A stretch of DNA of 64,000 nucleotides from a virus. Lineage: Duplodnaviria > Caudoviricetes. This document shows, piece by piece, positions 7,776-46,200 of the stretch. The stretch is taken from the IMG/VR virus record IMGVR_UViG_3300036929_000011, positions 1 to 64,000 of that record, one strand, 5' to 3'. Each line of letters begins with the position of its first letter. Within the stretch, counting starts at the first letter, position 1. A program made the translations under genes and the position numbers. The notes under the pieces were generated by a model, which searched no databases, was not told the origin of the DNA, and saw only the letters and a program-made list of their open reading frames with translations.

Positions 7776-8590
7776 CCTGCCGCCTTCATCTTTCGGATCG
7801 TGAACAGCGCAGCCTCGGCAGGAGGGCAACGAGCGAGCATCACGGATCGGGCATCGTCGGATGGTTCCGCCTCGATCATCTCGGCCGTGATGAGGTGTGG
7901 CTGCTCCACGACTATGCCTGGCACCCGCACCCCGTGAATCGAGTAGAGCCGCGATCCGTCACGCCAGAGGCAGAATGGTCCAGTCTCGCTGTGCGGTTTG
8001 TTGCTGCCGTCGACCGTAAGCTGCGCCGGCCTGTCGCTGACGATACAGAATTTGGAGTGCATCCAGCGCGGACCCGAGTGAATCGCAGCCTGCTCGTAGT
8101 GGTCCCAATTCGAGTAGTCCAGATCGAGCTGAGCTACGTACCGACCGAACGATAGATATGAGCACCACCCGGACCACTGATTACCGCCGTTCTGCATCCG
8201 CCACGCCTTCGCCGCACAGCCCAGCGCTTTGACCGCTGACTCTCGCATCAGATGAGTCGATAGACGTATCATATCTACCACGTCGCATCCACCTAGACCC
8301 CACCACTGCACGGTCGCCTGCTCGGGATGTTCACGTAGCCACCACATCCATGCAGCAAATCCGGCAGCAAACACCCCGACAAACGGCGACGGCACGAACA
8401 CGATTCGCTCGTCAGGAGGAGGTTCTAACTCAGCCGCTCGGTATAGTCCCTTCACCGCATCCCGCACAATGCGCCGTTCCTCATCGTCCATCGCCTTGGT
8501 CGACATCGCATTCGCGCTCCATCGGTCCAGCCACTCCGGAAACCGCGCCCTGTGTTCGGGTAACAGCTTGTAGAGCCTCTTGCGTGCCAT
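7772..8590 (-). CDS. DUF6745-like phage protein
   Basis: LYRAAELEPP...FVPSP and FCIVSDRP...PH...GP...WRDG..LYSIHGVRVP motifs; possibly leaderless. Confidence 0.7.
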   Translation of the reverse strand: MARKRLYKLLPEHRARFPEWLDRWSANAMSTKAMDDEERRIVRDAVKGLYRAAELEPPPDERIVFVPSPFVGVFAAGFAAWMWWLREHPEQATVQWWGLGGCDVVDMIRLSTHLMRESAVKALGCAAKAWRMQNGGNQWSGWCSYLSFGRYVAQLDLDYSNWDHYEQAAIHSGPRWMHSKFCIVSDRPAQLTVDGSNKPHSETGPFCLWRDGSRLYSIHGVRVPGIVVEQPHLITAEMIEAEPSDDARSVMLARCPPAEAALFTIRKMKAAG

Positions 8591-8595
8591 GTCCG

Positions 8596-8621
8596 TATTG
8601 TTGATCTTGCCGGTCGGTTTT
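8596..8621 (-). promoter_or_regulatory. Conserved bipartite motif copy 1 (AAAACC-N9-GATCAACAATA)
   Basis: One of six copies with invariant spacing; ATG lies 6 nt after AACAAT. Confidence 0.75.
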
Positions 8622-12632: not shown

Positions 12633-12658
12633 TATTGTTGATCTTCGTCGGTCGTTTT
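12633..12658 (-). promoter_or_regulatory. Conserved bipartite motif copy 2
   Basis: AAAACG-ACCGACGAA-GATCAACAATA, upstream of GGAGG SD. Confidence 0.75.
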
Positions 12659-21768: not shown

Positions 21769-22161
21769 CTATTGTTGATCTTTCCCGGCGGTTTTCTTCA
21801 GCAAAATGTGCCACGCCGCTTGCGTCTCCTCGATGCGGGCGTTCTGCCACTGGCGCAGCTCGGCGCCGGTCATCTCCCGGAACGGCCCGGCCTGGGAATG
21901 CAGGTCCCGGTGGGCCTGGGGGCAGAGAGGGATGCACGTGGAGTCGGGCGCCTTGAGACGCATGCCCGGCCTCTTACCGGCATGGTGAGCCTGGACCACT
22001 CCACGACAGCGGTGGGCAGGGGCGCAGCAGCAGAGCGTCTTCACCCACAGCATGTACTCGGTGTCGTGGGCCTTGCGGGCTCGGCGCTCCGGCGAGACCT
22101 GGCGCAACGGGGTCAAGCGGCGCAGGGGCGTGCGGGTGCGGAGAGGGGTTAGGCGCTTCAC
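21769..22161 (-). CDS. DUF968-like (HNHc/NinG-type) protein
   Basis: EYMLWVKTLCCC..AHH..GMRLKAPD..CIPLC..HRDLH. Confidence 0.7.
   Translation of the reverse strand: MKRLTPLRTRTPLRRLTPLRQVSPERRARKAHDTEYMLWVKTLCCCAPAHRCRGVVQAHHAGKRPGMRLKAPDSTCIPLCPQAHRDLHSQAGPFREMTGAELRQWQNARIEETQAAWHILLKKTAGKDQQ
21770..21795 (-). promoter_or_regulatory. Conserved bipartite motif copy 3
   Basis: AAAACC-GCCGGGAAA-GATCAACAATA; encodes the last codons and stop of the upstream gene. Confidence 0.75.
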
Positions 22162-22540: not shown

Positions 22541-22890
22541 CGCGCCGCCCTCCTTGCAGGCCCTTCCTTCAGCAGCCGCTCCTCGCTCCGCTTCCGCTGT
22601 TCTGCCGTCATGTTGCGGAACTTCCAGTTCCCGATGGAGAACTTTTTCGGGATGGGCTCGGTGCCGTCGCGAAGGCCCAGCATGCGGTCTTTCGTGCACT
22701 TCGAGCACTCGGGGTCCTGCTTGCACGGGCAAGTCTGTCTGGCTCGGTAGCGCGCGAGCTTGGCCTGGCACCCTTCGCACCGCGGGTCGAAGGTCTTGGG
22801 GATTCCGTAGGCCAAGCCGCCATGACAGGATGTGCACAAATTGGCCTTCATCCCACGATGGACTCGGCCAGGGTAGGAAAGCTTCGGCAT
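22537..22890 (-). CDS. Cys-rich hypothetical protein, 117 aa
   Basis: Coupled; four CxxC-like pairs. Confidence 0.55.
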   Translation of the reverse strand: MPKLSYPGRVHRGMKANLCTSCHGGLAYGIPKTFDPRCEGCQAKLARYRARQTCPCKQDPECSKCTKDRMLGLRDGTEPIPKKFSIGNWKFRNMTAEQRKRSEERLLKEGPARRAAR

Positions 22891-25081: not shown

Positions 25082-25107
25082 TATTGTTGATCGGTCGTCC
25101 GCGTTTT
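25082..25107 (-). promoter_or_regulatory. Conserved bipartite motif copy 4
   Basis: AAAACG-CGGACGACC-GATCAACAATA, upstream of GGAGG SD. Confidence 0.75.
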
Positions 25108-26300: not shown

Positions 26301-27296
26301 TCACCAACCTTGAGGGCAAAGGCCCTTCTCGGCCTTCTCAATCAGCCACTTGATCTGTTCTGACGTCAGTTCCAGGAACCCACTGACCTTCGCTTCCTCG
26401 GCGTCCTCCAAATGTCCGTTGACCCAGCCGAGCTTGGCTCGCTTGGCCTGCTCTTTCTGCTCGGCCTCGGGAAGGCTTGTGTCCGCGGTCCCAATCTGCG
26501 CGGCGATAAGGGCTTGGGTCAGCCTCTGGACTTCGGTCATGCCGGCCTTGGGCACGGCGGCGGGCTTGGCGCCGGAGGTGCGGGGGGCGTGGGCGCCAGG
26601 ATGGCCCTGGTCGTCGTCATCCGGCGGGGCGTCCTCGTCGGTGAAGATGTCAGAGCACGCGGTTGCGTTTCTGACCGCTTTGACGTAGGCGCGCTTCTGT
26701 GCAATTGAGATAATCGTGTTGTGGAGATCCATGACCTTGTCCGGGCTGATTGCCCCGGTCTGATCGAGAATTTTCTTATCCTCATCCCCGTATTTGGCGC
26801 CGCATCCTCCCTTCTTGGCAAAGCACAGCCACCCCCCGCCGAATTCTTCCTTGCCCTTGATGATCGTCGCCTTGCCGCAAGCTGGGCATAGGCGTGCCGA
26901 GGTTTGTACCAGGTACTTCTGTTCCCGGCTATTAGCAGATCCAATGGCTTCGCCGACTAATTCCCCAGTTACGGAATTAAAAAGTTTGCAGCGTACTTCC
27001 CGAAGAATGAAGTCGGGACGCTCGTCTCTCGTTTCAACAATGTACTCGGGGCGAAGCCTGAACACCTGGCAGAGAACTTCAGCGCCCGGCTGCAAAAGCG
27101 CCTTCTTGGGCTTCTTTCCAACCTGAGTCGTCCCGGGAATCTCTCCGAAGTCGGTGCCCTCCTTCATCACCTTTTGCATCACCTCGACGACGGCCATCCG
27201 CATTGCGACCGCGCGATTGACGTCGAGGCCGTAGTCTGGCCTAACCATGGTCCCTTGCTCTGCCACTACAACTGCCGTCTTGGCTTGGTCACTCAT
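26301..27296 (-). CDS. Putative ssDNA-annealing recombinase with Zn-ribbon insertion
   Basis: DFGEIPGT..ALLQPGAEVLC..ANSRE..NTIISIAQKRAYVKAV..SDIFTD; adjacent to the exonuclease. Confidence 0.6.
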   Translation of the reverse strand: MSDQAKTAVVVAEQGTMVRPDYGLDVNRAVAMRMAVVEVMQKVMKEGTDFGEIPGTTQVGKKPKKALLQPGAEVLCQVFRLRPEYIVETRDERPDFILREVRCKLFNSVTGELVGEAIGSANSREQKYLVQTSARLCPACGKATIIKGKEEFGGGWLCFAKKGGCGAKYGDEDKKILDQTGAISPDKVMDLHNTIISIAQKRAYVKAVRNATACSDIFTDEDAPPDDDDQGHPGAHAPRTSGAKPAAVPKAGMTEVQRLTQALIAAQIGTADTSLPEAEQKEQAKRAKLGWVNGHLEDAEEAKVSGFLELTSEQIKWLIEKAEKGLCPQGW

Positions 27297-28095: not shown

Positions 28096-28404
28096 GACCG
28101 TTCTCCCACCTGATCACCTCGTAGGCATCCGCATGATGCCGATCTCCCACTGCGCAGATGCATGGCGTAAACTATTGAGTTTTCCCCACAAGAACATCGA
28201 CAAAAATACCGCGACACTCCGGAGGCGTTGCTCGCGCGCGCTATAACTTTCCACCGACCGAACGTCCTACCGACTAGGCTCCATCTCTTCGCGGCATCGG
28301 CCTTTCGGTCAAAGGTCATGTTCTGGTCTCCTCGGGAAGGTTGCCCGCCGCCCGGCAGTTACGGCAAGGTCCGGGCGGCGGTATCCGCGTTGGTGCGGCT
28401 GTCT

Positions 28405-28707
28405 CTATTGTTGATCTTGTGGGGCGGTTTTCTCCGAAAAAGTTTCGGCTGCTCCGACCACCTGCTCGCCGAGCCACTGGTCGAACATCGCGTCCGTCTG
28501 CTCGCCGAACTTGAGGTACGCCTGGTCGGCGTTCGGGACCTGATGCGCCCGGCAGAATTCCCGCCAGCGCGCGCCGACCCAGCAAATGAACCCCGTCATC
28601 AGACCGCCAGGCCAGGACCTGTCGTCCGCCGCCATCTGCTCCTCGGGCGTGTGACCTTGGGACCGAGCAAAGAGCCAGTATCGGGGATTCCATTCCCGTG
28701 CGCTCAC
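28405..28707 (-). CDS. Hypothetical protein, 100 aa
   Basis: GTGA coupling; NPRY..FAR..G.TP..Q..WPGG.MTGFI.W pattern. Confidence 0.65.
   Translation of the reverse strand: MSAREWNPRYWLFARSQGHTPEEQMAADDRSWPGGLMTGFICWVGARWREFCRAHQVPNADQAYLKFGEQTDAMFDQWLGEQVVGAAETFSEKTAPQDQQ
28406..28431 (-). promoter_or_regulatory. Conserved bipartite motif copy 5
   Basis: AAAACC-GCCCCACAA-GATCAACAATA; embedded in the last codons of the upstream gene; 11-bp stem (28345-28381) in the leader. Confidence 0.75.
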
Positions 28708-28949
28708 GTCGTGGCCTCCAGCAACGCCTTCGCCCCATCCGGACCCAGGTACGCCACGAGGCTCGCCTTGACGATGTAGATGCGCAGCCCCACCCGCGTG
28801 TGCTGAATCGCCCCCTTGGCAATCCAGAGGTTCACGCTCTGGCGGTTCACGCCGGCCAGCCGTGCCGTCTCGGCCACTGTGAGATAGCCTTGCGCGCGCA
28901 TGCGGTCCTCTTGGGCGTGCTGTAGTGGTTTCCGTACTGTTGACTTCAT
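28704..28949 (-). CDS. Excisionase/MerR-like HTH (HTH_17) protein, 81 aa
   Basis: YLTVAETARLAGVNRQSVNLWIAKGAI..RVG..IYI. Confidence 0.8.
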   Translation of the reverse strand: MKSTVRKPLQHAQEDRMRAQGYLTVAETARLAGVNRQSVNLWIAKGAIQHTRVGLRIYIVKASLVAYLGPDGAKALLEATT

Positions 28950-29305
28950 GATGGGTTTCCTCCGTGCTCTTGCCAGAACTGCCTGGCCTCCGGCGTCCCT
29001 GGCCGGAAGCCAAAAACCTCTTCGACGACAGCTCCCACGTCGAGCTCGTAGAGCTTGCCATGGGTCTGCATCTCCATCGATAGGACGACCCAAAACGACT
29101 GATACTGTCCCTCAATGGCAGCAATGTGCTTACGGCCGTGGCCGGATACGTCGCGGGAGTCGACCTTGCCGCCACAGAGTCGGCACTGGATACGGTCCCA
29201 TTCTCGCGTACACCAGCCACGAGCATTGCTCTCCCCGCGGGCCTCGTGGAAATTGGCGTGCTTCCACATGCCAGCCAGGATTATGAGAGCGAGAGAGTCG
29301 TTCAA
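28946..29305 (-). CDS. Hypothetical protein with C2H2-like motif
   Basis: TTGA coupling (or ATG at MWKH); CRLCGG..HGRKH. Confidence 0.55.
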   Translation of the reverse strand: MNDSLALIILAGMWKHANFHEARGESNARGWCTREWDRIQCRLCGGKVDSRDVSGHGRKHIAAIEGQYQSFWVVLSMEMQTHGKLYELDVGAVVEEVFGFRPGTPEARQFWQEHGGNPS

Positions 29306-29835
29306 GCGCCCAGGTACTCCAGCGCGTACTCGCGCAACTGTCGGCTTCGCCCCAGTCTCTTCTTTGCGTCCTGGACCGCCTGGTAGACGTCCCGCACCGG
29401 GACCTTCCGCAGCTTGGCGACCTCGGCCGGCTTGCGCTCCTCCAGCAGCACCTCGCCCGCCAAGTCCCCACCGGGCAGCAGCGCCAGCATGCGGGTGATG
29501 AGGTTCGCGACCCGGTGCCGGTCCAGATGCGCCTCCGCCGGCTCGGCCGGAAGTGGGACGTGGTCGATGCTTCGCAGGACCTCCCGCTTGCACCCGTCCA
29601 GCTCGGCGATGCAGTGGCGGGACGCGTACACCGGGGCACGTGCCTTGCGGACGTAAAGCCAGAGCGCCCCCGTCATCGCCTTCGCCTGGCAGGCTTCGAG
29701 AGGCGCCCCGTCTGGCTTCCAGGTGCGGGCCGCTTCGAGCTTCGCCAGTTCGGCCTGCTGCCGCAGCTCCTGGATTTCCAGCCAGCCGCAAAGAAAGGAG
29801 TAGTTGCGCACAATTGCCGTGGTTGCGTCTTTCAT
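29302..29835 (-). CDS. Divergent sigma70-family factor (region 2 plus region 4), 177 aa
   Basis: IQELRQQAELAKLEAARTWKPDG.P..A..AMTGALWLYVRK resembles region 2; LLPGG..VLLEERKPAEVAKLRKVPVRDVYQAVQDAKKRL resembles the region 4 HTH. Alignment by eye. Confidence 0.6.
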   Translation of the reverse strand: MKDATTAIVRNYSFLCGWLEIQELRQQAELAKLEAARTWKPDGAPLEACQAKAMTGALWLYVRKARAPVYASRHCIAELDGCKREVLRSIDHVPLPAEPAEAHLDRHRVANLITRMLALLPGGDLAGEVLLEERKPAEVAKLRKVPVRDVYQAVQDAKKRLGRSRQLREYALEYLGA

Positions 29836-29838
29836 TGG

Positions 29839-30318
29839 TCATGGTCCTTCGGTTGGTGGTAGTACGGCGTTCGGTATGCAGCCCCAGACCTCTTCAATCA
29901 CGCTCTTCCAGGATGGCGGAGGTGCATAGGTTATCTCAGGCGGACCATCGGCGACTATAGTGGACACAGAGCTGCCGATAAAGTGCTCCGCGTGTGTAGG
30001 CTGATGGAAGCCCACAATCTGACTGCGCGCTTCTTCGCTTTCTATCAGATATAGAGCCTCAGCCGCCGCGACCTTCTCGGCTCCGAGGGCGTCTATGTGA
30101 CACCGTTCGTGTTCAACAACTGACGCGAACATCGCATCGGTGACCCCAATTTTCGCGCCGATTGGCCGACTACACAGCAAGCAATAGGCACAGGACAGAG
30201 CGTAGTTGTACTCCCACCAACTGGCTCGAAAGTGGATGCGCGACATAGACGTCAGAAGAGCATTATGCTCGGTATGCGCATCTGCGCTCTCGCCGAACTT
30301 GGTGGCTCCTAGGAGCAT
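29839..30318 (-). CDS. Hypothetical protein (lower GC)
   Basis: AGGA SD; fills the gap. Confidence 0.55.
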   Translation of the reverse strand: MLLGATKFGESADAHTEHNALLTSMSRIHFRASWWEYNYALSCAYCLLCSRPIGAKIGVTDAMFASVVEHERCHIDALGAEKVAAAEALYLIESEEARSQIVGFHQPTHAEHFIGSSVSTIVADGPPEITYAPPPSWKSVIEEVWGCIPNAVLPPTEGP

Positions 30319-30322
30319 TGTC

Positions 30323-31201
30323 CTACGCCGCCGCGTCCTCAGCTTGAGCCAGAATCGCCGCCTCCGCCAACCGCGACCTCAGCCCCGACAACTGACCCTG
30401 GAGCTCGACCAGCGACGTCCCCAGCAGCGCCTCGTAGCCGGCGACCTTGGTGGCCACTCGGTCGCACTGCTTAGCCTTGGTCTTGAGCGCCCGCGGGCCG
30501 GCTTCGACGTTCGATAGGATGGCCTCGAACTCGGCAATCTCGGCGCTGGCCTCACGCTCGACCGCGGCGAGGATGGCCTGGACGGCGCTCTCGGTGCGCA
30601 GGGCCGGGATCTCGTAGCAGACGTGGGCGCCCACCGACCGGATCACCTCGGCGGCCAGGCGGAACTTGTCCACCGACGCCGGGGGGAGAAAGTAGAACCC
30701 GCCGCGCGCCCGCAACGCTACCGCGTCCAGAGACTCGCAGAAATGCACCAGCAGGCTGGAGATATCGGAGGGGACCAGGTTGACCAAATGCCGCTGGTAG
30801 CTCGCCTGAATCGAGTCCGCAAGAGGCCCGGTCGCCGGCTCGATCTTGAGGACGCCGTCAGCGTCGACGGTCGCCACCACGGATTGCTGATAGGCCAGCG
30901 TCTCGCCCTGGGCGGTTTCCTCGACCAGGCTGTAGCCCTCGCGCCCGGCCAGGGGCCGCACCAGCTTGCGCTGCTCGGCCAGCGTCTCGACCGCGCGCTT
31001 GAGGGCGGCCTTGGGCGCTACGGCTTCGGGCACCAGAGCGATGTCCAGTCCTGCCGCCTGCCAGGCCACCCGTAGCTTCTCGACGTCGACGAGGCCGCTC
31101 AATTCCCACCAGCTCATCGCCCCGGCTTGCGGGGTTCCTTCAGGGACAGCGAGAAAGTCTTTGCTTGTAACGATGCCTTGGGTCGTTCCGGTCGTGGTCA
31201 T
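30323..31201 (-). CDS. DUF3150/DUF6744-like protein
   Basis: CAGGAGG SD before MTTTG; WWELSG..W.AAGL..P..AALKRAV..GGFYFLP; next to the AAA/vWA pair. Confidence 0.6.
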   Translation of the reverse strand: MTTTGTTQGIVTSKDFLAVPEGTPQAGAMSWWELSGLVDVEKLRVAWQAAGLDIALVPEAVAPKAALKRAVETLAEQRKLVRPLAGREGYSLVEETAQGETLAYQQSVVATVDADGVLKIEPATGPLADSIQASYQRHLVNLVPSDISSLLVHFCESLDAVALRARGGFYFLPPASVDKFRLAAEVIRSVGAHVCYEIPALRTESAVQAILAAVEREASAEIAEFEAILSNVEAGPRALKTKAKQCDRVATKVAGYEALLGTSLVELQGQLSGLRSRLAEAAILAQAEDAAA

Positions 31202-31215
31202 TGGGTCCTCCTGCA

Positions 31216-31231
31216 TGTTTCACGTGAAAAG
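31216..31231. promoter_or_regulatory. parS-like palindrome TGTTTCACGTGAAAAG
   Basis: 14/16 match to TGTTTCACGTGAAACA; intergenic, abutting an SD. Confidence 0.4.
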
Positions 31232-31270
31232 TCGAAACCTAGTCTAGCTAGTCGTGTCTAGTTTGTACAA

Positions 31271-32593
31271 TTATTCCTTGATCTGGATTTTCTTTCCCCA
31301 ACCGCACGGCGCCGACGAGTACGGCCCGACCAACACCCAGATCGTTTCGAACCCGCGTGGAGCTGCCGCCGGTGCCGGCCCCTGGCCGTCCGTGACGAAC
31401 ACGAACAGGTCGACCTTGGGGCGCAGCTCTTCGACCGCCTGAAATACCGGCCGAAAATCTGTCCCACCTCCACCTTTAAGCTGCGATGCCAGCTCGGCCG
31501 CCGTCCGCACCTCGCGAGTCTCGTGCACGGCCGCGTCGCATGCGAGGAACACGATTGGCGTCCCGATGGCTCGTAGGCATCCCTGGGCCTCGCTTACAGC
31601 ACGCACAAGCTCGTCGTGGCCCATGCTTCCCGAGGTATCCACTCCGAACGCTACGCGCGGCCGTGGGGCGCACAGGGCCGGCATCAGGGGCGTACTGCCC
31701 CCCAGGGCGCGCGCGACCGCCCCAAACGCAGCCTGGCGCCGCGAGAAGCGCGTCCTGGTGTAGTCGACCCTCCCGGCGATCGTTGCCACCCCGGCCCGGA
31801 TGGCGCGTCGTAGCTGATCCTGCCAGCGGACCTTCGGCGGCTGGAGCTCGGACTCGGCCCACACCAGCAGGCCGCCCGGAACACTCCCCCGCCCCTTCTG
31901 GGCGACGTGCTGCTGGATAGCCTCGGCCACGTCCCGGCGGATGCGGTCTAGGTCGGCCGAGCTGCGGGGCTTGGCGCCGGACGCGCCCTCGGGCTCACCG
32001 TCCACCGGGGGTCCGCCCGAGCCAGAGCCGCATTTCCCGCGCGCGACGTCTGCCTTGCCGTTGCCCTTGCCGTTGCCCTTGCCTGTAGCGCAGCCCTCGC
32101 CCTCACTATCGCCGTCCTGTTCTGTCCCCTTGCCATCCTTGCCCTGGCCGCCCTTTCCGGCCTGCGTGGTCGCCTGCTTGAGCAGCTCGTTATAGTACTC
32201 CTCGGCCATCTGGCCGTTCTTCAGGCCGTACTTCTTGGGCAGGCTCGGGTCGGCGGGCAGTAGCTCCTCTTTTAAGTCGTCGTTGATCTCAAGATCCACG
32301 GCCACCCCGGCAATTTCTCGATTGACCTGCGGGATGGCGTCTATGCGATCGCAGTGCCGGCGCAGCAGGTGGAGCAGCTCGTGCGAGACGACCTCGCCGG
32401 CCTGGGGCGCCGTGATGACCGCGAGGAAGTCCGGGTCCACCAGGAGGATGCCGGTCTTGGTCATCGCCATCGTCCTCACCGGCGCGAATCGCCGCACCAG
32501 CCCGCTGAACCCTGCTGCGAAGTACGGAAACCTTTGCTCGGCCGCGAGGATGGCGGCTGAGAGGCGCTGCCCGTCGGTGAGCGTGGAGTCCAT
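31271..32593 (-). CDS. vWA-domain metallopeptidase-like protein (DUF2201 type)
   Basis: HELLH zincin motif, Gly/Lys linker, MIDAS DTSGSM, GGGTDF, TDG. Confidence 0.85.
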   Translation of the reverse strand: MDSTLTDGQRLSAAILAAEQRFPYFAAGFSGLVRRFAPVRTMAMTKTGILLVDPDFLAVITAPQAGEVVSHELLHLLRRHCDRIDAIPQVNREIAGVAVDLEINDDLKEELLPADPSLPKKYGLKNGQMAEEYYNELLKQATTQAGKGGQGKDGKGTEQDGDSEGEGCATGKGNGKGNGKADVARGKCGSGSGGPPVDGEPEGASGAKPRSSADLDRIRRDVAEAIQQHVAQKGRGSVPGGLLVWAESELQPPKVRWQDQLRRAIRAGVATIAGRVDYTRTRFSRRQAAFGAVARALGGSTPLMPALCAPRPRVAFGVDTSGSMGHDELVRAVSEAQGCLRAIGTPIVFLACDAAVHETREVRTAAELASQLKGGGGTDFRPVFQAVEELRPKVDLFVFVTDGQGPAPAAAPRGFETIWVLVGPYSSAPCGWGKKIQIKE

Positions 32594-33771
32594 CAGGATC
32601 CCACCTTGATGCCCGCGGCCTGGAAGATGGGGAGGTACTTGGCCAGGACCTTCTCGGCGTCTTTCAGCATACCCTTCGGGCCGCGCACCAGCCGCACCTC
32701 GTTCGAGGCCAGCGTCTTGACGGCGGGGAAGATCACGTCAGCGACCTCCATCAGCGGGACTAGCATGTGCCAGAGGGCCTCGGCGCGTGCCATCCTCTTG
32801 ACGGCCGACTGCGGGGCCACGAGGGCCGCGCACGCCGAGCAGACAACCATGGTTCGGTCCAGCCGGTCGGGGTCGTGCTTCCACTCGATTTCGCCGTCGA
32901 GCAACCGCTCGGGGTCAGGCAGGTCGACGTTGACCAGCCAGCTGCGCAGCTCGCGGATCGCCGCCGGGCCGACGAAGGCGCCAACGTAGCGATCGGTATC
33001 GGCCTCGTCGAGGTGGTGGATTTCGGAGGCCGCCAGAGCGCGCGTGGCCATCTCCCACGAGCGCCGCGACGGCCAGGCCAGCGATGCCTCGGGCGATCCA
33101 CTCGCCGGCTGCGCGTGCAGCAGACTGGGCTTACGCCGGAGGAACGAGGTGATGATCCCGGAGGCCTTGGCGTAGGCCGCTGGCCAGAGCTTCAACACGC
33201 GCTTCTCCTCGGCCTCGGCCGTGGTCGCGACCTCGACCTCATTGCCGTTCCCGGCCTGCAGGAGCCACGAGCACCAGTCCTGACAGGATGGGCCCGTCCA
33301 GTCTGGCAGCGTGCCGAATCGGTTGGCCAGCGGGGCCGCGAGGTCGTAGCCGCCGGCCGCATCGTCGACGCTGTTCTGGGCGGCGAGAATCCGCACGGTG
33401 TCGGGCAGCACGAAGTCGCCGACCACACGGTCGAGGACCACGCGAAGCAGAGCTGCTTGGACTGCTGGGGGCGCGCAGTTGACCTCATCCAAAAATACCA
33501 CCGCGTGCTTGGCCGCCGCAGCTCGGAGCGCCCAGGCGGGCGGCGCGTACCCGACCGATCCGTCGGGACGTGGAACTGGCAGGCCGAGAAAATCGGTCGG
33601 GTCGCGGAGGGACGCGATCACGACCTCGACCTCCAGGCCCGCAGCCTGGGCTACACGCTCGATCAGCGCGCTCTTGGCCGTGCCGGGGGCGCCGATGATC
33701 CGGAGAGGAAGTCCCCAGTGATGTTTCGACCCGACGGTAAAGAGGGCGGCGTGTACAATTTGAGTGTCCAT
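32593..33771 (-). CDS. MoxR-family AAA+ ATPase
   Basis: GAPGTAKS, VVFLDE, APPAVQAALL, PLANRF, PSRRSW. Confidence 0.85.
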   Translation of the reverse strand: MDTQIVHAALFTVGSKHHWGLPLRIIGAPGTAKSALIERVAQAAGLEVEVVIASLRDPTDFLGLPVPRPDGSVGYAPPAWALRAAAAKHAVVFLDEVNCAPPAVQAALLRVVLDRVVGDFVLPDTVRILAAQNSVDDAAGGYDLAAPLANRFGTLPDWTGPSCQDWCSWLLQAGNGNEVEVATTAEAEEKRVLKLWPAAYAKASGIITSFLRRKPSLLHAQPASGSPEASLAWPSRRSWEMATRALAASEIHHLDEADTDRYVGAFVGPAAIRELRSWLVNVDLPDPERLLDGEIEWKHDPDRLDRTMVVCSACAALVAPQSAVKRMARAEALWHMLVPLMEVADVIFPAVKTLASNEVRLVRGPKGMLKDAEKVLAKYLPIFQAAGIKVGS

Positions 33772-34221
33772 CTAAGCCCTCCTTCCCGCTACGTGGTTCC
33801 AGCGTTGCCGATCGAGAATCTTGCTGATCTGCTGTTGGCAAACGCCAAAGGCGTCTGCGATGCGCTGCTGTGTCCACCCGTTTGCGCAAAGCTCTCGGAT
33901 GCGCAGAACCTTCGCCTCAGTAAGCTTGGCACCGTATGCACGTTCGCCGCGTGCCACGCGTTCTGGGTGCAAGCGTGAACCGTTGCGGTCACCACGTGGC
34001 ACGCACTCCGGATGCGTTTTTGAGCCGTGCGCATCCTGTATGCCGTCGGGAATTTGGCCGTGCACAAACTCCCATGCCACGCGATGAGCCTGTCTCATCT
34101 TACTTGCCATCCAGAATTGACCATAGCCACCGCTCAGAACCGCCGTCCACTCCAGACACGGCGTGGTCATCCCATGCCGCACTTCAGTCGCCAGCTTTGT
34201 CTTCGCATAAAACCGCTCCAT
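33772..34221 (-). CDS. Degenerate HNH homing endonuclease (catalytic core deleted) with C-terminal HTH
   Basis: CLEWT..GYGQF..AHRVAWEF.HG.IPDG runs straight into DAHGSKTHPE; C-terminal WTQQRIADAFGVCQQQIS. Confidence 0.7.
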   Translation of the reverse strand: MERFYAKTKLATEVRHGMTTPCLEWTAVLSGGYGQFWMASKMRQAHRVAWEFVHGQIPDGIQDAHGSKTHPECVPRGDRNGSRLHPERVARGERAYGAKLTEAKVLRIRELCANGWTQQRIADAFGVCQQQISKILDRQRWNHVAGRRA

Positions 34222-34463
34222 CAGCGCACCTCCCCTTCCGTGCCCTGGTGCCACTCGACGATCACGATGCTGGTCTGGTGCCAGTCCCCGTCGCCTCCAA
34301 GACGCCAGTCGGTCCTGATGATCGCCGTCTCGTCGCCTGGGATGTTGGCCATGCGGGCGAGTTCGACGGTTTCACAGTTCGGGCCACGGAAGAAGCTGTC
34401 TTCCGCGGGCGTGCCGTTGATCATGCGGGCCTTGTGATACGTGGTCTGGGTCTTGGTTGCCAT
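34221..34463 (-). CDS. Early hypothetical protein
   Basis: CCAGGAGG SD with AC-rich leader. Confidence 0.7.
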   Translation of the reverse strand: MATKTQTTYHKARMINGTPAEDSFFRGPNCETVELARMANIPGDETAIIRTDWRLGGDGDWHQTSIVIVEWHQGTEGEVR

Positions 34464-36510: not shown

Positions 36511-36660
36511 GGCAGGTCTCCTAGGTTGGTGGTGGTGGTCGTCGTGGTCGGGACTACTGGCGCCTGAGCGCAGCAGATTTGGCTTGGGCTGAGTCGAGTC
36601 GCTGCCTCGCGGCTGGTCTCGCGGTCCCGGGCTGCTGTCTGCTTCGTCGCGGTCACAGAT

Positions 36661-36717
36661 ATATTATTACGCTAGTCCTGCTATTTGTAAAGAAAAACAC
36701 GCTATCTATATTCGCTA
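36661..36717 (-). promoter_or_regulatory. AT-rich sigma70-like early promoter (TTTACA-N17-AATAAT) with four TAGCR repeats
   Basis: Conspicuously AT-rich tract; -35 at 36686-36691, -10 at ~36661-36669; YGCTA at 36670, 36679, 36700, 36713. Confidence 0.6.
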
Positions 36718-36731
36718 GTTGTTACGCGCAC

Positions 36732-37109
36732 TTACGGCTCTTGCTGGCAGTATCGCAGACGCAGCCACCGGGCCACGGCGTCTACGATCGAGGATACCCT
36801 GGGTAACTCGGGGTCGGTGGTGGTGCCGGCCGGGGAGAATTGTAGCCGCGACCACTTTTCGACCAGCGTCTCGACGGGAACGCCACTCTGGAGCGCCAGG
36901 GACGCCGTGATCGAGAGCGCGTCCAGCAGGCCCGAAATCGTCGAGCCGGTGCGGTCCCCCTTCAGAAAAATCTCTGCTAGACGGCCGTCTGGGTAGGTCC
37001 CCGTCGACACGTAGATTTTCAGATCCTCCGGCCCTCGCTCGGTCATGTAGCGCAGGTGGATTCGCTTCGTGAGGCCGCGCCGTTCCGCCGGCAATCGCTC
37101 GCGCGACAT
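36732..37109 (-). CDS. Stand-alone TSCPD domain protein (class II RNR C-terminal-like), 125 aa
   Basis: RERLPAERRGLT..IYVSTGTYPDG..EIFL..GSTISGLLDA..SLALQ.GVP.E.LVEK..F.P.G..P....SIVD..RWL. Confidence 0.8.
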   Translation of the reverse strand: MSRERLPAERRGLTKRIHLRYMTERGPEDLKIYVSTGTYPDGRLAEIFLKGDRTGSTISGLLDALSITASLALQSGVPVETLVEKWSRLQFSPAGTTTDPELPRVSSIVDAVARWLRLRYCQQEP

Positions 37110-37384
37110 CAGTTTGTGCCTCGGTTCGCCGCCTCGCGGATGCCTCGATCGACGCGCTCCTTGCCGAAAAGGTCGCAGGCTAAGCGGTAGTTGCATACCT
37201 CCAGATGCGCAATCAGCTGCGCCTGCTGGTGGATCACGCCCTTGAGCTCTTCGTTTTCTCGCCCGAGAAACGCGCCCGCTTTTTCTGACGCACGTTCTGC
37301 CTGGCGAGCTCGGTGCAGATACCAGAGCACCAACAGACCGGTCAGAGGCACGGCGCAGTCGAGCAATAGGTACAGTGTTGCCAT
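37109..37384 (-). CDS. Small membrane-anchored coiled-coil protein, probably leaderless
   Basis: TM segment LYLLLDCAVPLTGLLVLWYL; ATG 6 nt after AACAAT; no SD. Confidence 0.6.
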   Translation of the reverse strand: MATLYLLLDCAVPLTGLLVLWYLHRARQAERASEKAGAFLGRENEELKGVIHQQAQLIAHLEVCNYRLACDLFGKERVDRGIREAANRGTN

Positions 37385-37389
37385 GTCCA

Positions 37390-37415
37390 TATTGTTGATC
37401 CGTTGCTGCGGTTTT
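37390..37415 (-). promoter_or_regulatory. Conserved bipartite motif copy 6
   Basis: AAAACC-GCAGCAACG-GATCAACAATA. Confidence 0.75.
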
Positions 37416-42797: not shown

Positions 42798-42821
42798 GAT
42801 GTTTTCCTTTCGCTCAGCCTA

Positions 42822-44273
42822 TCACAGGGTCATCTGGGTGACCCAAAAGGTGCCGACGGCCCGCAAGGTGTTTGAGACCGAGCTGGCCACCAAAAGTAAG
42901 ATCGCTGCGACCTGGCCGCTGAAGTAGCCAAGCTTCTCCAACTCGAACGTCCGAAGCGGTAGACCGTCGATTGGCGCAATCCAATCCGTCACTATCACGC
43001 TGCTGTCAGCAAGAATCATTGCAAACATAAACGCGTCTGTGCTGGGATCGATCGGTCCCACGGTCACCAGGCCCTGCCGTACCATCCAAGCGGATCCGGT
43101 CGGCGGCGCGAGTACGAAGGCCATGGTTCCCGCCGGGTCTGCCACCACTTCGCCAACCCCACCAAGGCGCATGCTGTTCTCGACGTAGGTATCGAACTGG
43201 ACCCCGCCCGCGCGCTTCACCCGGGCCTCCTCGCTGATCGCATGCAGAGCGGCCGTCAACGACGGCGCGAGCCCGATGTCCGGAAACCCCCAAGCTTGGT
43301 CATCGCAGAACGTATCGTCACCGTAGCAGCCAGACCCGTCTGGCTCGGTCAGCTGACCTGCCACCGCAAGCCTGAAGTAGGCGCGGCCTTGTCGAAGGTC
43401 GGGGACCTCAAGCGTGCGAAACGGCTGCTTGCCGGTCAGGTCGTCACCAAGGGCGTCGTCGCAGAAGTCAGATTCTGCGAACAGAGAATCGGCAAAGACG
43501 AGCTCAAGCTCCATCCTCGCGGCGTCGCTGGACTGGTCCCGGTAGGGTTCGACCATGTACGTGTCCGGGAGCTGGCCCTGCGCCCCGTGGACCGCCTCCT
43601 GAATCGCCTTGGGTGTGGCGGCCTCTGGAATCAGCCTGACCCGCAGCCGGTACGCCTCTCCATCCTCGCCCGCCTGTCGCCGACAGCCCCGCTCGTCACC
43701 GTGCATCGACAGCCAGTCCATCTCGGCTCCGGTGACGGCGGTCGCAAACCCATAGGTGGTGTACCCACCCGGGCCTAGGATGACGTCGCTGACGCTGTCC
43801 AGAACCGCCGTGCTGAGCGGATCGATGATTGCGTCCACTGGGTCGCCTGGTGCCAGCACATCGTCAAAGACTGGGTCGGTGGTATTGGCCAGGTCAATCT
43901 GTCGAACTGTCCGCAGGGGCAGTAGGATGCTCGTCTGGTGGGCCGCCACGGGAACGTCAAGCGCCACCAGCAACTGAACGCCTCGCGCGTCAACGAACAT
44001 GAACCCCTTGGGGATCAGCGCCGTGGTCGTGAGATCAGGCCTGGTGATGGTCAGGTCGCAGGATCCTGACCTCCCAGTGGGCGCCGTGGAGATGGAGCAC
44101 GCCTCCACCTGTTGCATCACGGCCTTGCTCGTCGCTTCGGCGATGGCCAGCTTGGCGTTGATGATTGCCGCGCCGTCGGGAGTCGCCATGAAGTCCGACA
44201 GCCAATTCTCATCGCACGTGCGGCGAAGCAGGGCCAAGCCATCGGCCTGAGTGAGGGGGCCGGAGTCACTCAT
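42822..44273 (-). CDS. Baseplate wedge protein (gpI/J-related)
   Basis: LSMHG.ERG..R..GE..EAYR.R..ATPKAI motif; follows baseplate J. Confidence 0.65.
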   Translation of the reverse strand: MSDSGPLTQADGLALLRRTCDENWLSDFMATPDGAAIINAKLAIAEATSKAVMQQVEACSISTAPTGRSGSCDLTITRPDLTTTALIPKGFMFVDARGVQLLVALDVPVAAHQTSILLPLRTVRQIDLANTTDPVFDDVLAPGDPVDAIIDPLSTAVLDSVSDVILGPGGYTTYGFATAVTGAEMDWLSMHGDERGCRRQAGEDGEAYRLRVRLIPEAATPKAIQEAVHGAQGQLPDTYMVEPYRDQSSDAARMELELVFADSLFAESDFCDDALGDDLTGKQPFRTLEVPDLRQGRAYFRLAVAGQLTEPDGSGCYGDDTFCDDQAWGFPDIGLAPSLTAALHAISEEARVKRAGGVQFDTYVENSMRLGGVGEVVADPAGTMAFVLAPPTGSAWMVRQGLVTVGPIDPSTDAFMFAMILADSSVIVTDWIAPIDGLPLRTFELEKLGYFSGQVAAILLLVASSVSNTLRAVGTFWVTQMTL

Positions 44274-46176: not shown

Positions 46177-46200
46177 TGGGTGAATCCTATCACTCCGCGA

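Follow-up and report, generated by a model that had tools for sequence, protein, structure and literature searches.

Encoding its own sigma factor is a classic way for a phage to time its transcription; to our knowledge, few such factors have been characterized, and almost none come from uncultured, high-GC environmental phages. Among bacterial sigmas, the group 4, or extracytoplasmic function (ECF), factors such as E. coli sigmaE, B. subtilis sigmaW, and C. metallidurans CnrH consist of sigma2 and sigma4 domains within ~170 to 190 amino acids (aa), with no sigma3 or sigma1.1; their promoters combine an AAC -35 motif with a 14- to 17-bp spacer and a group-specific -10 (PMC5758882, PMC1540707). 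In SPO1, an early-made phage sigma redirects host core RNA polymerase (RNAP) to bipartite promoters, with gp28 serving middle genes and gp33/gp34 late genes (PMC13401047). In phiEco32 and 7-11, one phage sigma made early from host-type promoters (gp36 in phiEco32) is proposed to serve both middle and late phage-specific promoters, and phage-sigma promoters also lie upstream of the sigma gene itself, a dual host-plus-phage arrangement (PMC4331800). Here we consider a possible counterpart in virus record IMGVR_UViG_3300036929_000011 (Caudoviricetes), which is 75,534 bp long with a CheckV completeness of 92%. By "window" we mean the whole stretch analyzed, the first 64 kb of this record. A first-pass annotation of the window had proposed that the gene at 29302..29835 (- strand), here called sigma-1, encodes a miniature, highly divergent sigma70-family factor with a region-4-type helix-turn-helix (HTH) at its C terminus, and that it likely reads a motif repeated six times in the window; it named structural comparison with sigma domains and co-occurrence of gene and motif across related phages as checks.

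We found that sigma-1 is almost certainly a sigma-70-family protein. The 177-aa open reading frame (ORF) is a well-supported gene, with a GC content at third codon positions of 0.86, an ATG start 3 nt past the preceding stop codon, and, 8 to 12 nt upstream of it, the ribosome-binding site (RBS) AAGGA. It belongs to a previously unnamed protein family and is a very divergent two-domain sigma factor. Searched alone against Pfam, PHROGs (E ≤ 10), NCBIfam (E ≤ 10), and the PDB (phmmer), sigma-1 gave nothing relevant; tblastn against 50,697 cultured phage records gave no usable match (best E = 4), 24 kb of the window had no megablast match among phages, and a GTDB genome scan revealed no prophage relatives; a scan of metagenomes contributed just four further loci, all short and near-identical. 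When 1.8 billion representatives were searched exhaustively with HMMER, 178 relatives were found at E ≤ 1e-3, nearly all 165 to 200 aa long and matched over their full length. Twenty-three homologs are close (39 to 99% identity), and two of these carry the JGI label "sigma24 family."

For family-wide tests we sampled 75 relatives, of which 44 matched Pfam Sigma70_r2 and 47 matched NCBIfam TIGR02937, the sigma70-ECF model (E < 1e-3 for both). Full-length relatives grade smoothly into recognized sigma-70/ECF proteins; one such chain runs through P0031, which matches sigma-1 over its full length (E = 2.3e-18) and Sigma70_r2 with 35.7 bits (gathering cutoff, 24). The profile built from the 75 sequences matched 74 PDB sequences at E ≤ 0.01. 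Among the 60 listed, two KorA-domain HTH proteins were the exceptions; the others are sigma factors, including RpoH, RpoS, SigA, and RpoE. Against RpoH (E = 1.4e-10) it aligned separately over region 2 (positions 9 to 78 with RpoH 63 to 130) and region 4 (96 to 170 with RpoH 201 to 280), and against RpoE (1or7) it matched across positions 8 to 170.

The region-2 alignment pairs "DLxQeA..a.leA.rtwdP" with DLIQEGNIGLMKAVRRFNP and sets sigma-1 ELRQQA against RpoH DLIQEG, essentially reproducing an alignment made by eye in the first-pass annotation. In sigma-70, the Gln of this DLxQEG-like region 2.2 motif contacts the beta' coiled-coil. Residues L24, Q26, A28, E34, and W39 are invariant among the 21 close homologs aligned, and Q26 and A28 are kept in at least 90% of the 75 relatives.

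Structural evidence is independent of these distant relatives. A full-length AlphaFold2 model of sigma-1, built from the 21 close homologs only, had a mean predicted local distance difference test (pLDDT) score of 75, and almost all of its top 50 Foldseek matches were sigma factors. Model residues 1 to 66 superposed on the sigma2 domains of SigE (N-terminal domain, 8b3z_C), sigma70, sigmaS, sigma28, and SigA with Z scores of 8.0 to 8.6 and root-mean-square deviations of 1.4 to 2.0 Å over 63 to 66 residues (best, Z = 8.6 and 1.4 Å over 64 residues); all 50 listed structural matches for sigma2 are sigma-factor chains or sigma-containing RNAP complexes. We also modeled the last 80 residues on their own (pLDDT 87.9) and searched this domain against 48,161 representative chains, with no Foldseek prefilter. 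Ranks 1 to 21 of the 48,161 were all sigma region 4 or the sigma-like domain of PhyR, mostly of ECF type, with Z scores of 6.6 to 8.1; they include CnrH (8.1), SigL (8.0), sigmaE region 4 with -35 DNA (7.8), and SigW (7.6). The structural check thus found similarity to sigma domains for both region 2 and region 4, and the C-terminal HTH was borne out by profile and structure alike. Because both structural lists are uniform and the sequence evidence agrees, we consider the sigma assignment secure.

In the model, helices within residues 2 to 66 form sigma2 and those within 100 to 175 form sigma4. The sigma2 domain is encoded at 29638..29835 (-; residues 1 to 66) and carries the region 2.2-like motif ELRQQAELAKLEAARTWKP; the sigma4 domain, at 29305..29544 (-; residues 98 to 177), contains the HTH with its recognition helix VRDVYQAVQDAKKRL. 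The 34-residue linker between them (residues 67 to 100) is short, variable, and predicted with low confidence. Sigma-1 has no sigma3 domain, and its architecture is therefore group 4-like; like the ECF sigmas, it pairs sigma2 with sigma4 and lacks sigma1.1. The label "miniature" holds relative to sigma-70, whereas 177 aa is an ordinary length for a two-domain, group 4-type sigma.

Other features also resemble ECF systems. The sigma4 domain is structurally closest to ECF region 4; the candidate promoter described below, which we assign to sigma-1 by inference, has an AAC -35 block, a short spacer, and a group-specific -10 (PMC5758882, PMC1540707); and a copy of it upstream of the sigma-1 operon raises the possibility of autoregulation. 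Differences are equally clear. Sigma-1 itself is detected neither by TIGR02937 (E ≤ 10) nor by the Pfam region 2 and region 4 models, placing it at or beyond the edge of these models, and by profile its sigma2 is at least as near to RpoH, RpoS, and SigA as to ECFs. The -10 of the motif, xAxAAT, is not of the CGT type, no anti-sigma is recognizable, and sigma-1 is phage encoded. In sigmaE, the G of GGAAC is read by R176, a residue reported as conserved in group IV (PMC1540707). An hhalign alignment with the close family (E = 0.054, so that its register is tentative) pairs F175-R176 of E. coli RpoE with Q155-D156, and the column equivalent to R176 holds D, E, H, L, or A in the close family. At the base matching the sigmaE R176 contact, the candidate -35 block has A, not G, which fits D156 as far as this weak alignment goes. 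Sigma-1 is thus structurally nearest to ECF sigmas, yet it departs from them in two defining respects, detection by TIGR02937 and, tentatively, the arginine. Because its sigma2 is at least as near to RpoH, RpoS, and SigA, and because the ECF model failed to detect it, we call sigma-1 a two-domain sigma-70-family factor and assign it to no ECF group.

The motif reads AAAAC-N10-GATCAACAATA on the coding strand and occurs seven times in the genome, six of them within the window. Its exact 11-mer TATTGTTGATC lies on the + strand at 8596, 12633, 21770, 25082, 28406, and 37390, where 0.27 occurrences are expected by chance; the six copies of the first-pass annotation are therefore exact. A weight-matrix scan was bimodal: the seven copies scored 43 to 56 bits and every other site in the genome scored ≤12 bits. 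All seven are on the coding strand at gene boundaries; they share two conserved blocks, separated by 10 unconstrained nucleotides and preceded by a patch rich in A/T. Two of the copies include the TAG stop codon of the gene before them, and four are followed, 16 to 86 nt later, by a start codon with an RBS. Dependence on a Dam site (GATC) within the motif was rejected, as relatives carry GAAC or GAGC at that place.

Copy 1 (8596..8621, -; 53.7 bits) directly follows a TerL-like ATPase gene and is followed by a DUF6745 gene and a long run towards the structural genes. Copy 2 (12633..12658, -) lies upstream of a 253-aa gene with a GGAGG-GTG start, and copy 3 (21770..21795, -; 55.8 bits) lies 16 nt upstream of the GGAGG-ATG of a DUF3850 gene. 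Copy 4 (25082..25107, -), between a PD-(D/E)XK nuclease gene and a 524/604-aa ATPase-like gene, leaves a conserved footprint across five lineages. Copy 5 (28406..28431, -; 53.4 bits) contains the TAG of the upstream gene and precedes inserted HNH and insertion sequence (IS) genes and a conserved 331-aa gene; orthologous copies are present in G001, a related genome that is syntenic with this phage (G000) along its whole length and 100% complete by CheckV, and in L004, L002, L025, and L023. Copy 6 (37390..37415, -; 47.8 bits; G001 ortholog at 28198) precedes a 91-aa membrane protein gene, a TSCPD gene, and the whole sigma-1 block. Copy 7 is outside the window (genome 66072-66097), beside the genes of an island that encodes a second sigma.

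The position of certain start codons suggests how the motif might work. Exactly 5 nt after copies 1 and 6 there is an ATG without an RBS (at 8590 and 37384; window 8585-8595, CGGACATGGCA, and 37379-37389, TGGACATGGCA), and the syntenic G001 copies share this arrangement, with the ATG 5 nt (copy at 529) and 4 nt past the motif. If AACAAT is taken as a -10, with A at -11 and T at -7, the ATGs at 8590 and 37384 fall on +1, which implies leaderless mRNAs. This placement is internal, sequence-based evidence for the motif as a putative promoter of sigma-70-family geometry. The implied leaderless mRNAs would encode the DUF6745 protein and the 91-aa membrane protein, whose gene adjoins a GH25 lysin gene.

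In the motif copies and in relatives, AAAAC is followed by 16 nt to CAATA, or 14 nt to AACAAT. The C of AAAAC is 27 nt from the predicted +1, and a sigma-70-type -35 hexamer would have a spacer of 13 nt; this is too short for sigma-70 region 4 and within the range described for ECF-type promoters.

Gene and motif occur together in relatives. Among those with enough DNA, which leaves out the distant P0024, P0026, P0027, P0029, and P0031 as well as the 76.8-kb contig that carries P0008, both are present in all six lineages. The motif is exact in L004/L005 and in L020 (sigma identities to sigma-1 of 77% and 91%) and both exact and as a variant with a 1-nt insertion in L025 (74%); it reads AAAAC-N10-GAACAACAATA in G001 (62%; 5 copies), AAAAC-N10-GAGCCACAATA in L002 (63%; 2 copies), and AAAAC-N10-AAACAATAATA in L023 (about 51%). 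When two orthologous intergenic sites were aligned across 5 to 6 lineages, invariant columns were concentrated in the AAAAC and A[C/T]AATA blocks. As a reverse test, we scanned IMG/VR twice with the GATC and GAAC forms of the 26-nt pattern. These scans returned 115 stretches (median GC, 0.37), 3 of them on G001 and the other 112 single copy; G001 was the only contig with more than one copy, and just 1 of the 115, that on G001, encodes a sigma-1 relative. Thus neither the six lineages nor the IMG/VR scans revealed a relative that keeps the motif without the sigma gene.

A second, more canonical sigma gene, sigma-2, lies just outside the window at genome 64958-65464 (L006:2958-3464, + strand). 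It encodes 168 aa and matches Sigma70_r2 above the cutoff (38.8 to 40.1 bits); tblastn against the 50,697 cultured phage genomes gave no usable match for it either. Genes for a 71-aa HTH protein and a 61-aa membrane protein belong to the same + strand module, next to which are a 140-aa gene and motif copy 7, at about 64.2 to 66.1 kb. An island of ~1.7 kb, where G001 has only about 490 bp, comprises the HTH gene, sigma-2, the 140-aa gene, and copy 7. A protein search, a PF04542 search at E ≤ 10, and profile A2, which does detect sigma-2 in G000, all returned no sigma-2 homolog from G001; the sigma-1 homolog is the sole sigma-like gene there. Because G001 is without the island yet keeps sigma-1 and the motif, we regard sigma-2 as accessory and sigma-1 with its motif as core. 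The accessory island appears, from its sequence, to use the phage's own promoter type.

The order of these elements matches the first-pass annotation, which had placed sigma-1 in an early transcript from a sigma70-like promoter at 36.7 kb and upstream of motif copies 1 to 5. The promoter (36663..36691, -; TTTACA-17-AATAAT, 10/12 matches) heads the operon containing sigma-1 and sits in the most AT-rich intergenic island; its sequence is conserved in G001 at 26727-26820, where the -10 rule of our strict sigma-70 scan excluded it and it came to light on inspecting AT-rich islands. Between this promoter and sigma-1 there is no convincing terminator. Downstream of sigma-1, the five motif copies stand ahead of recombination, replication, and packaging genes, while copy 6 stands upstream of sigma-1's own block. 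Since the run headed by copy 1 extends into the structural genes, middle and late genes alike may be served by one sigma.

The two most AT-rich intergenic islands, at 36647-36734 and 31225-31306, carry repeated ACTAGC words (e.g., GACTAGCG and AACTAGCTAGACT), and both are conserved in G001 (26727-26820 and 22771-22872); one overlaps the spacer of the early promoter. These repeats may be an operator for a phage regulator.

Compared with described phage systems, the resemblance to SPO1 gp28 and phiEco32 gp36 is functional and organizational only. The first-pass annotation had likened sigma-1 to SPO1 gp28 acting in an early-to-middle switch. The series of early promoter, sigma, and motifs agrees with that comparison, but because motif copies also head the packaging/structural run and the sigma-1 block, the switch is nearer to that of phiEco32 gp36, in which one phage sigma serves middle and late genes with feedback, than to a pure early-to-middle step. 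For the same reason, namely that the motif also heads the packaging/structural run, a two-step cascade of the SPO1 type is unsupported; tblastn found no sequence relationship of sigma-1 to the SPO1 factors, and the core genome, as seen in G001, has one sigma only, the second being accessory. The phiEco32 and 7-11 genomes are also similar in size (~75 to 77 kb). Their promoters are a single block (tAATGTAtA or TGATGT), however, whereas that described here is bipartite with a -35-type element; there is no detectable sequence similarity between sigma-1 and any cultured phage protein, and no anti-sigma-70 gene was identified here.

From these findings we propose the following model. Host RNAP with its housekeeping sigma would transcribe sigma-1 early from the 36.7-kb promoter; the promoter and gene order are observed, and they suggest this timing. 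Sigma-1 would displace the host sigma on core polymerase, as its conserved region 2.2 motif implies, and guide the polymerase to the bipartite AAAAC-N10-GA-nnn-ACAATA. There, sigma4 would read the A-tract/AAC block and sigma2 the -10 hexamer xAxAAT (AACAAT in this phage), with initiation ~6 nt past the motif. Promoter copies would thereby drive the recombination/replication genes and the packaging/structural run that they head, and the copy upstream of the sigma-1 operon would give positive feedback, so that a single phage sigma would run the whole post-early program. We put the probability of this full model, including motif reading by sigma-1, at about two in three. The link from sigma-1 to the motif is most likely correct and, while it is still drawn by inference, is now much better supported than when first suggested; sigma-2, just outside the window, had to be excluded as reader along the way. 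A more far-reaching version seems doubtful to us: that sigma-1 founds a phage-only two-domain lineage, neither standard ECF nor group 3, which has lost the ECF -35 Arg, reads AAAAC and xAxAAT at ECF-like short spacing, and is the sole core sigma running the whole post-early program, including leaderless transcripts and the feedback copy.

Several observations weigh against our model. Sigma-1 alone matches no curated family, and the close-family profile A1 found no sigma in the PDB, just a chance match to ZraP; because neither the protein nor this profile finds a sigma, intermediate relatives carry the sequence link to sigma-70. For small helical domains, Z scores of ~8 are middling, and the structural case depends on how consistent the hit lists are. 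The residue aligned, weakly, with sigmaE R176 is D156, which is not basic. The -10-like xAxAAT, with A at -11 and T at -7, also suits host sigma-70. The phages in which gene and motif co-occur share ancestry, making co-function and co-inheritance inseparable. Finally, the element GTGATAGG at structural-gene junctions could be another promoter class.

This element, GTGATAGG[C/A]T, occurs three times per genome in G000 and G001, only at structural-gene junctions and 7 to 20 nt before start codons (window 42816-42825 and 46184-46193, genome 74252-74261; G001 63744, 62947, and 38581; all -). Its location is consistent, its count is marginal relative to chance (P about 0.05 per genome), and nothing upstream of it is conserved as a block; possible roles are the -10 of a late promoter, a site of processing, and a translational element. 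Genome-wide enumeration of 5-N-5 bipartite words and a scan for 10-mers shared by G000 and G001 returned GC-rich background and no reliable second promoter class beyond GTGATAGG. A search for a T7-like RNAP gave no match, a weak result since its positive control also gave none; the largest ORF, at 1000 aa, argues against an N4-type virion RNAP.

The main rival to our model is an activator-dependent host promoter: sigma-1 would be a genuine sigma that reads another class, such as GTGATAGG, while the motif would be read by host sigma-70 together with a phage activator at AAAAC, like T4 MotA or Mu Mor, or by an alternative host sigma. HTH proteins that might serve are encoded nearby (HTH_17 at 28704-29093 and HTH_23/HNH at 33772-34254), the -10 would suit the host factor as noted, and the restriction of GTGATAGG[C/A]T to late-gene junctions in both genomes fits a late class of its own. 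However, the well-conserved sigma4 HTH implies a -35-type element, which the bipartite motif has and GTGATAGG does not, and the GTGATAGG count is barely above chance. AAAAC is also invariant at a fixed distance that would give a sigma-70-type -35 hexamer a 13-nt spacer, a geometry typical of ECF-type promoters rather than of activator boxes (PMC5758882), and no phage activator family was detected. We therefore judge this alternative unlikely.

Another possibility is that sigma-1 has a sigma-like fold with no role in initiation and acts instead as a DNA-binding regulator, a decoy that sequesters an anti-sigma, or an inhibitor of host RNAP. Sigma-like domains do serve non-sigma roles, and PhyR is among the sigma4 structural matches (row 13); two HTH repressors, KorA and ArdK, match the C-terminal domain as well, sigma-1 itself falls below every curated sigma model, and D156, aligned with sigmaE R176, is not basic. 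Yet sigma-1 has both sigma domains, in the canonical order and each of canonical size; it conserves the region 2.2 motif (D/E-L-x-Q-[QE]), Q26 being as widespread as described above; it has no receiver or other partner domain; and its full-length relatives grade into recognized sigmas, which leaves this reading very improbable. Finally, a two-sigma cascade, in which sigma-2 reads the motif and sigma-1 acts later as in SPO1 gp28 followed by gp33/34, could draw on the profile score of sigma-2, its possibly immediate-early + strand module, and the motif copies adjoining sigma-2 and upstream of the sigma-1 block, but it is largely refuted already by G001, which keeps five motif copies and the sigma-1 homolog with neither sigma-2 nor island, and we give it next to no weight.

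The genes around sigma-1 include a candidate partner. Nearly all window genes are on the - strand; they encode a major head protein, tail proteins, and a primase/helicase, as well as a MoxR-type AAA ATPase, a DUF2201 VWA protein, DUF6744, and HTH proteins. Just downstream of sigma-1, a 107-aa ORF (28946..29269, -) has a Cys/His pattern, C-x2-C...H-x4-H. Homologs (40 to 85% identity) adjoin the sigma gene in L004, L020, G001, L025, and L023; in L023 there is an additional paralog. It has no significant Pfam match and matches no anti-sigma family; it is a possible anti-sigma, partner, or regulator of sigma-1.

Directly upstream of sigma-1, a 159-aa ORF (29839-30318, -) has no homolog in any fetched relative and no family match; it appears to have been inserted between DUF6744 and the sigma gene in this lineage specifically. 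The sigma proteins of G000 and G001 share only 62% identity, whereas the products of the adjacent genes (30323-33771) are 90% (AAA ATPase), 82% (VWA protein), and 90% (DUF6744) identical. Sigma-1 thus appears to evolve much faster than its operon neighbors, and the middle bases of the motif seem to change alongside. As for the G001 record, the same 12-nt tandem coding repeat is found at both ends of the contig (L014:1-210; L018 = G001 81660-81905), and its DUF6745 homolog spans the contig ends; because of this spanning gene and the shared end repeat, we take the record to be a circularly permuted complete genome.

Control of post-early transcription by a phage's own sigma factor is a strategy known from other phages, proposed here for a previously unnamed protein family, and is not surprising in kind. 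The family is missed by standard annotation, with Pfam, PHROGs, and NCBIfam all blank, and it comes with a clean, conserved candidate promoter, the seven copies of which divide the genome into proposed transcription units; G001 serves as a natural control that separates the core sigma from the accessory one. If our model is true, sigma-1 and its promoter would form a compact, probably orthogonal transcription switch, and the pair would aid the annotation of related metagenomic phages.

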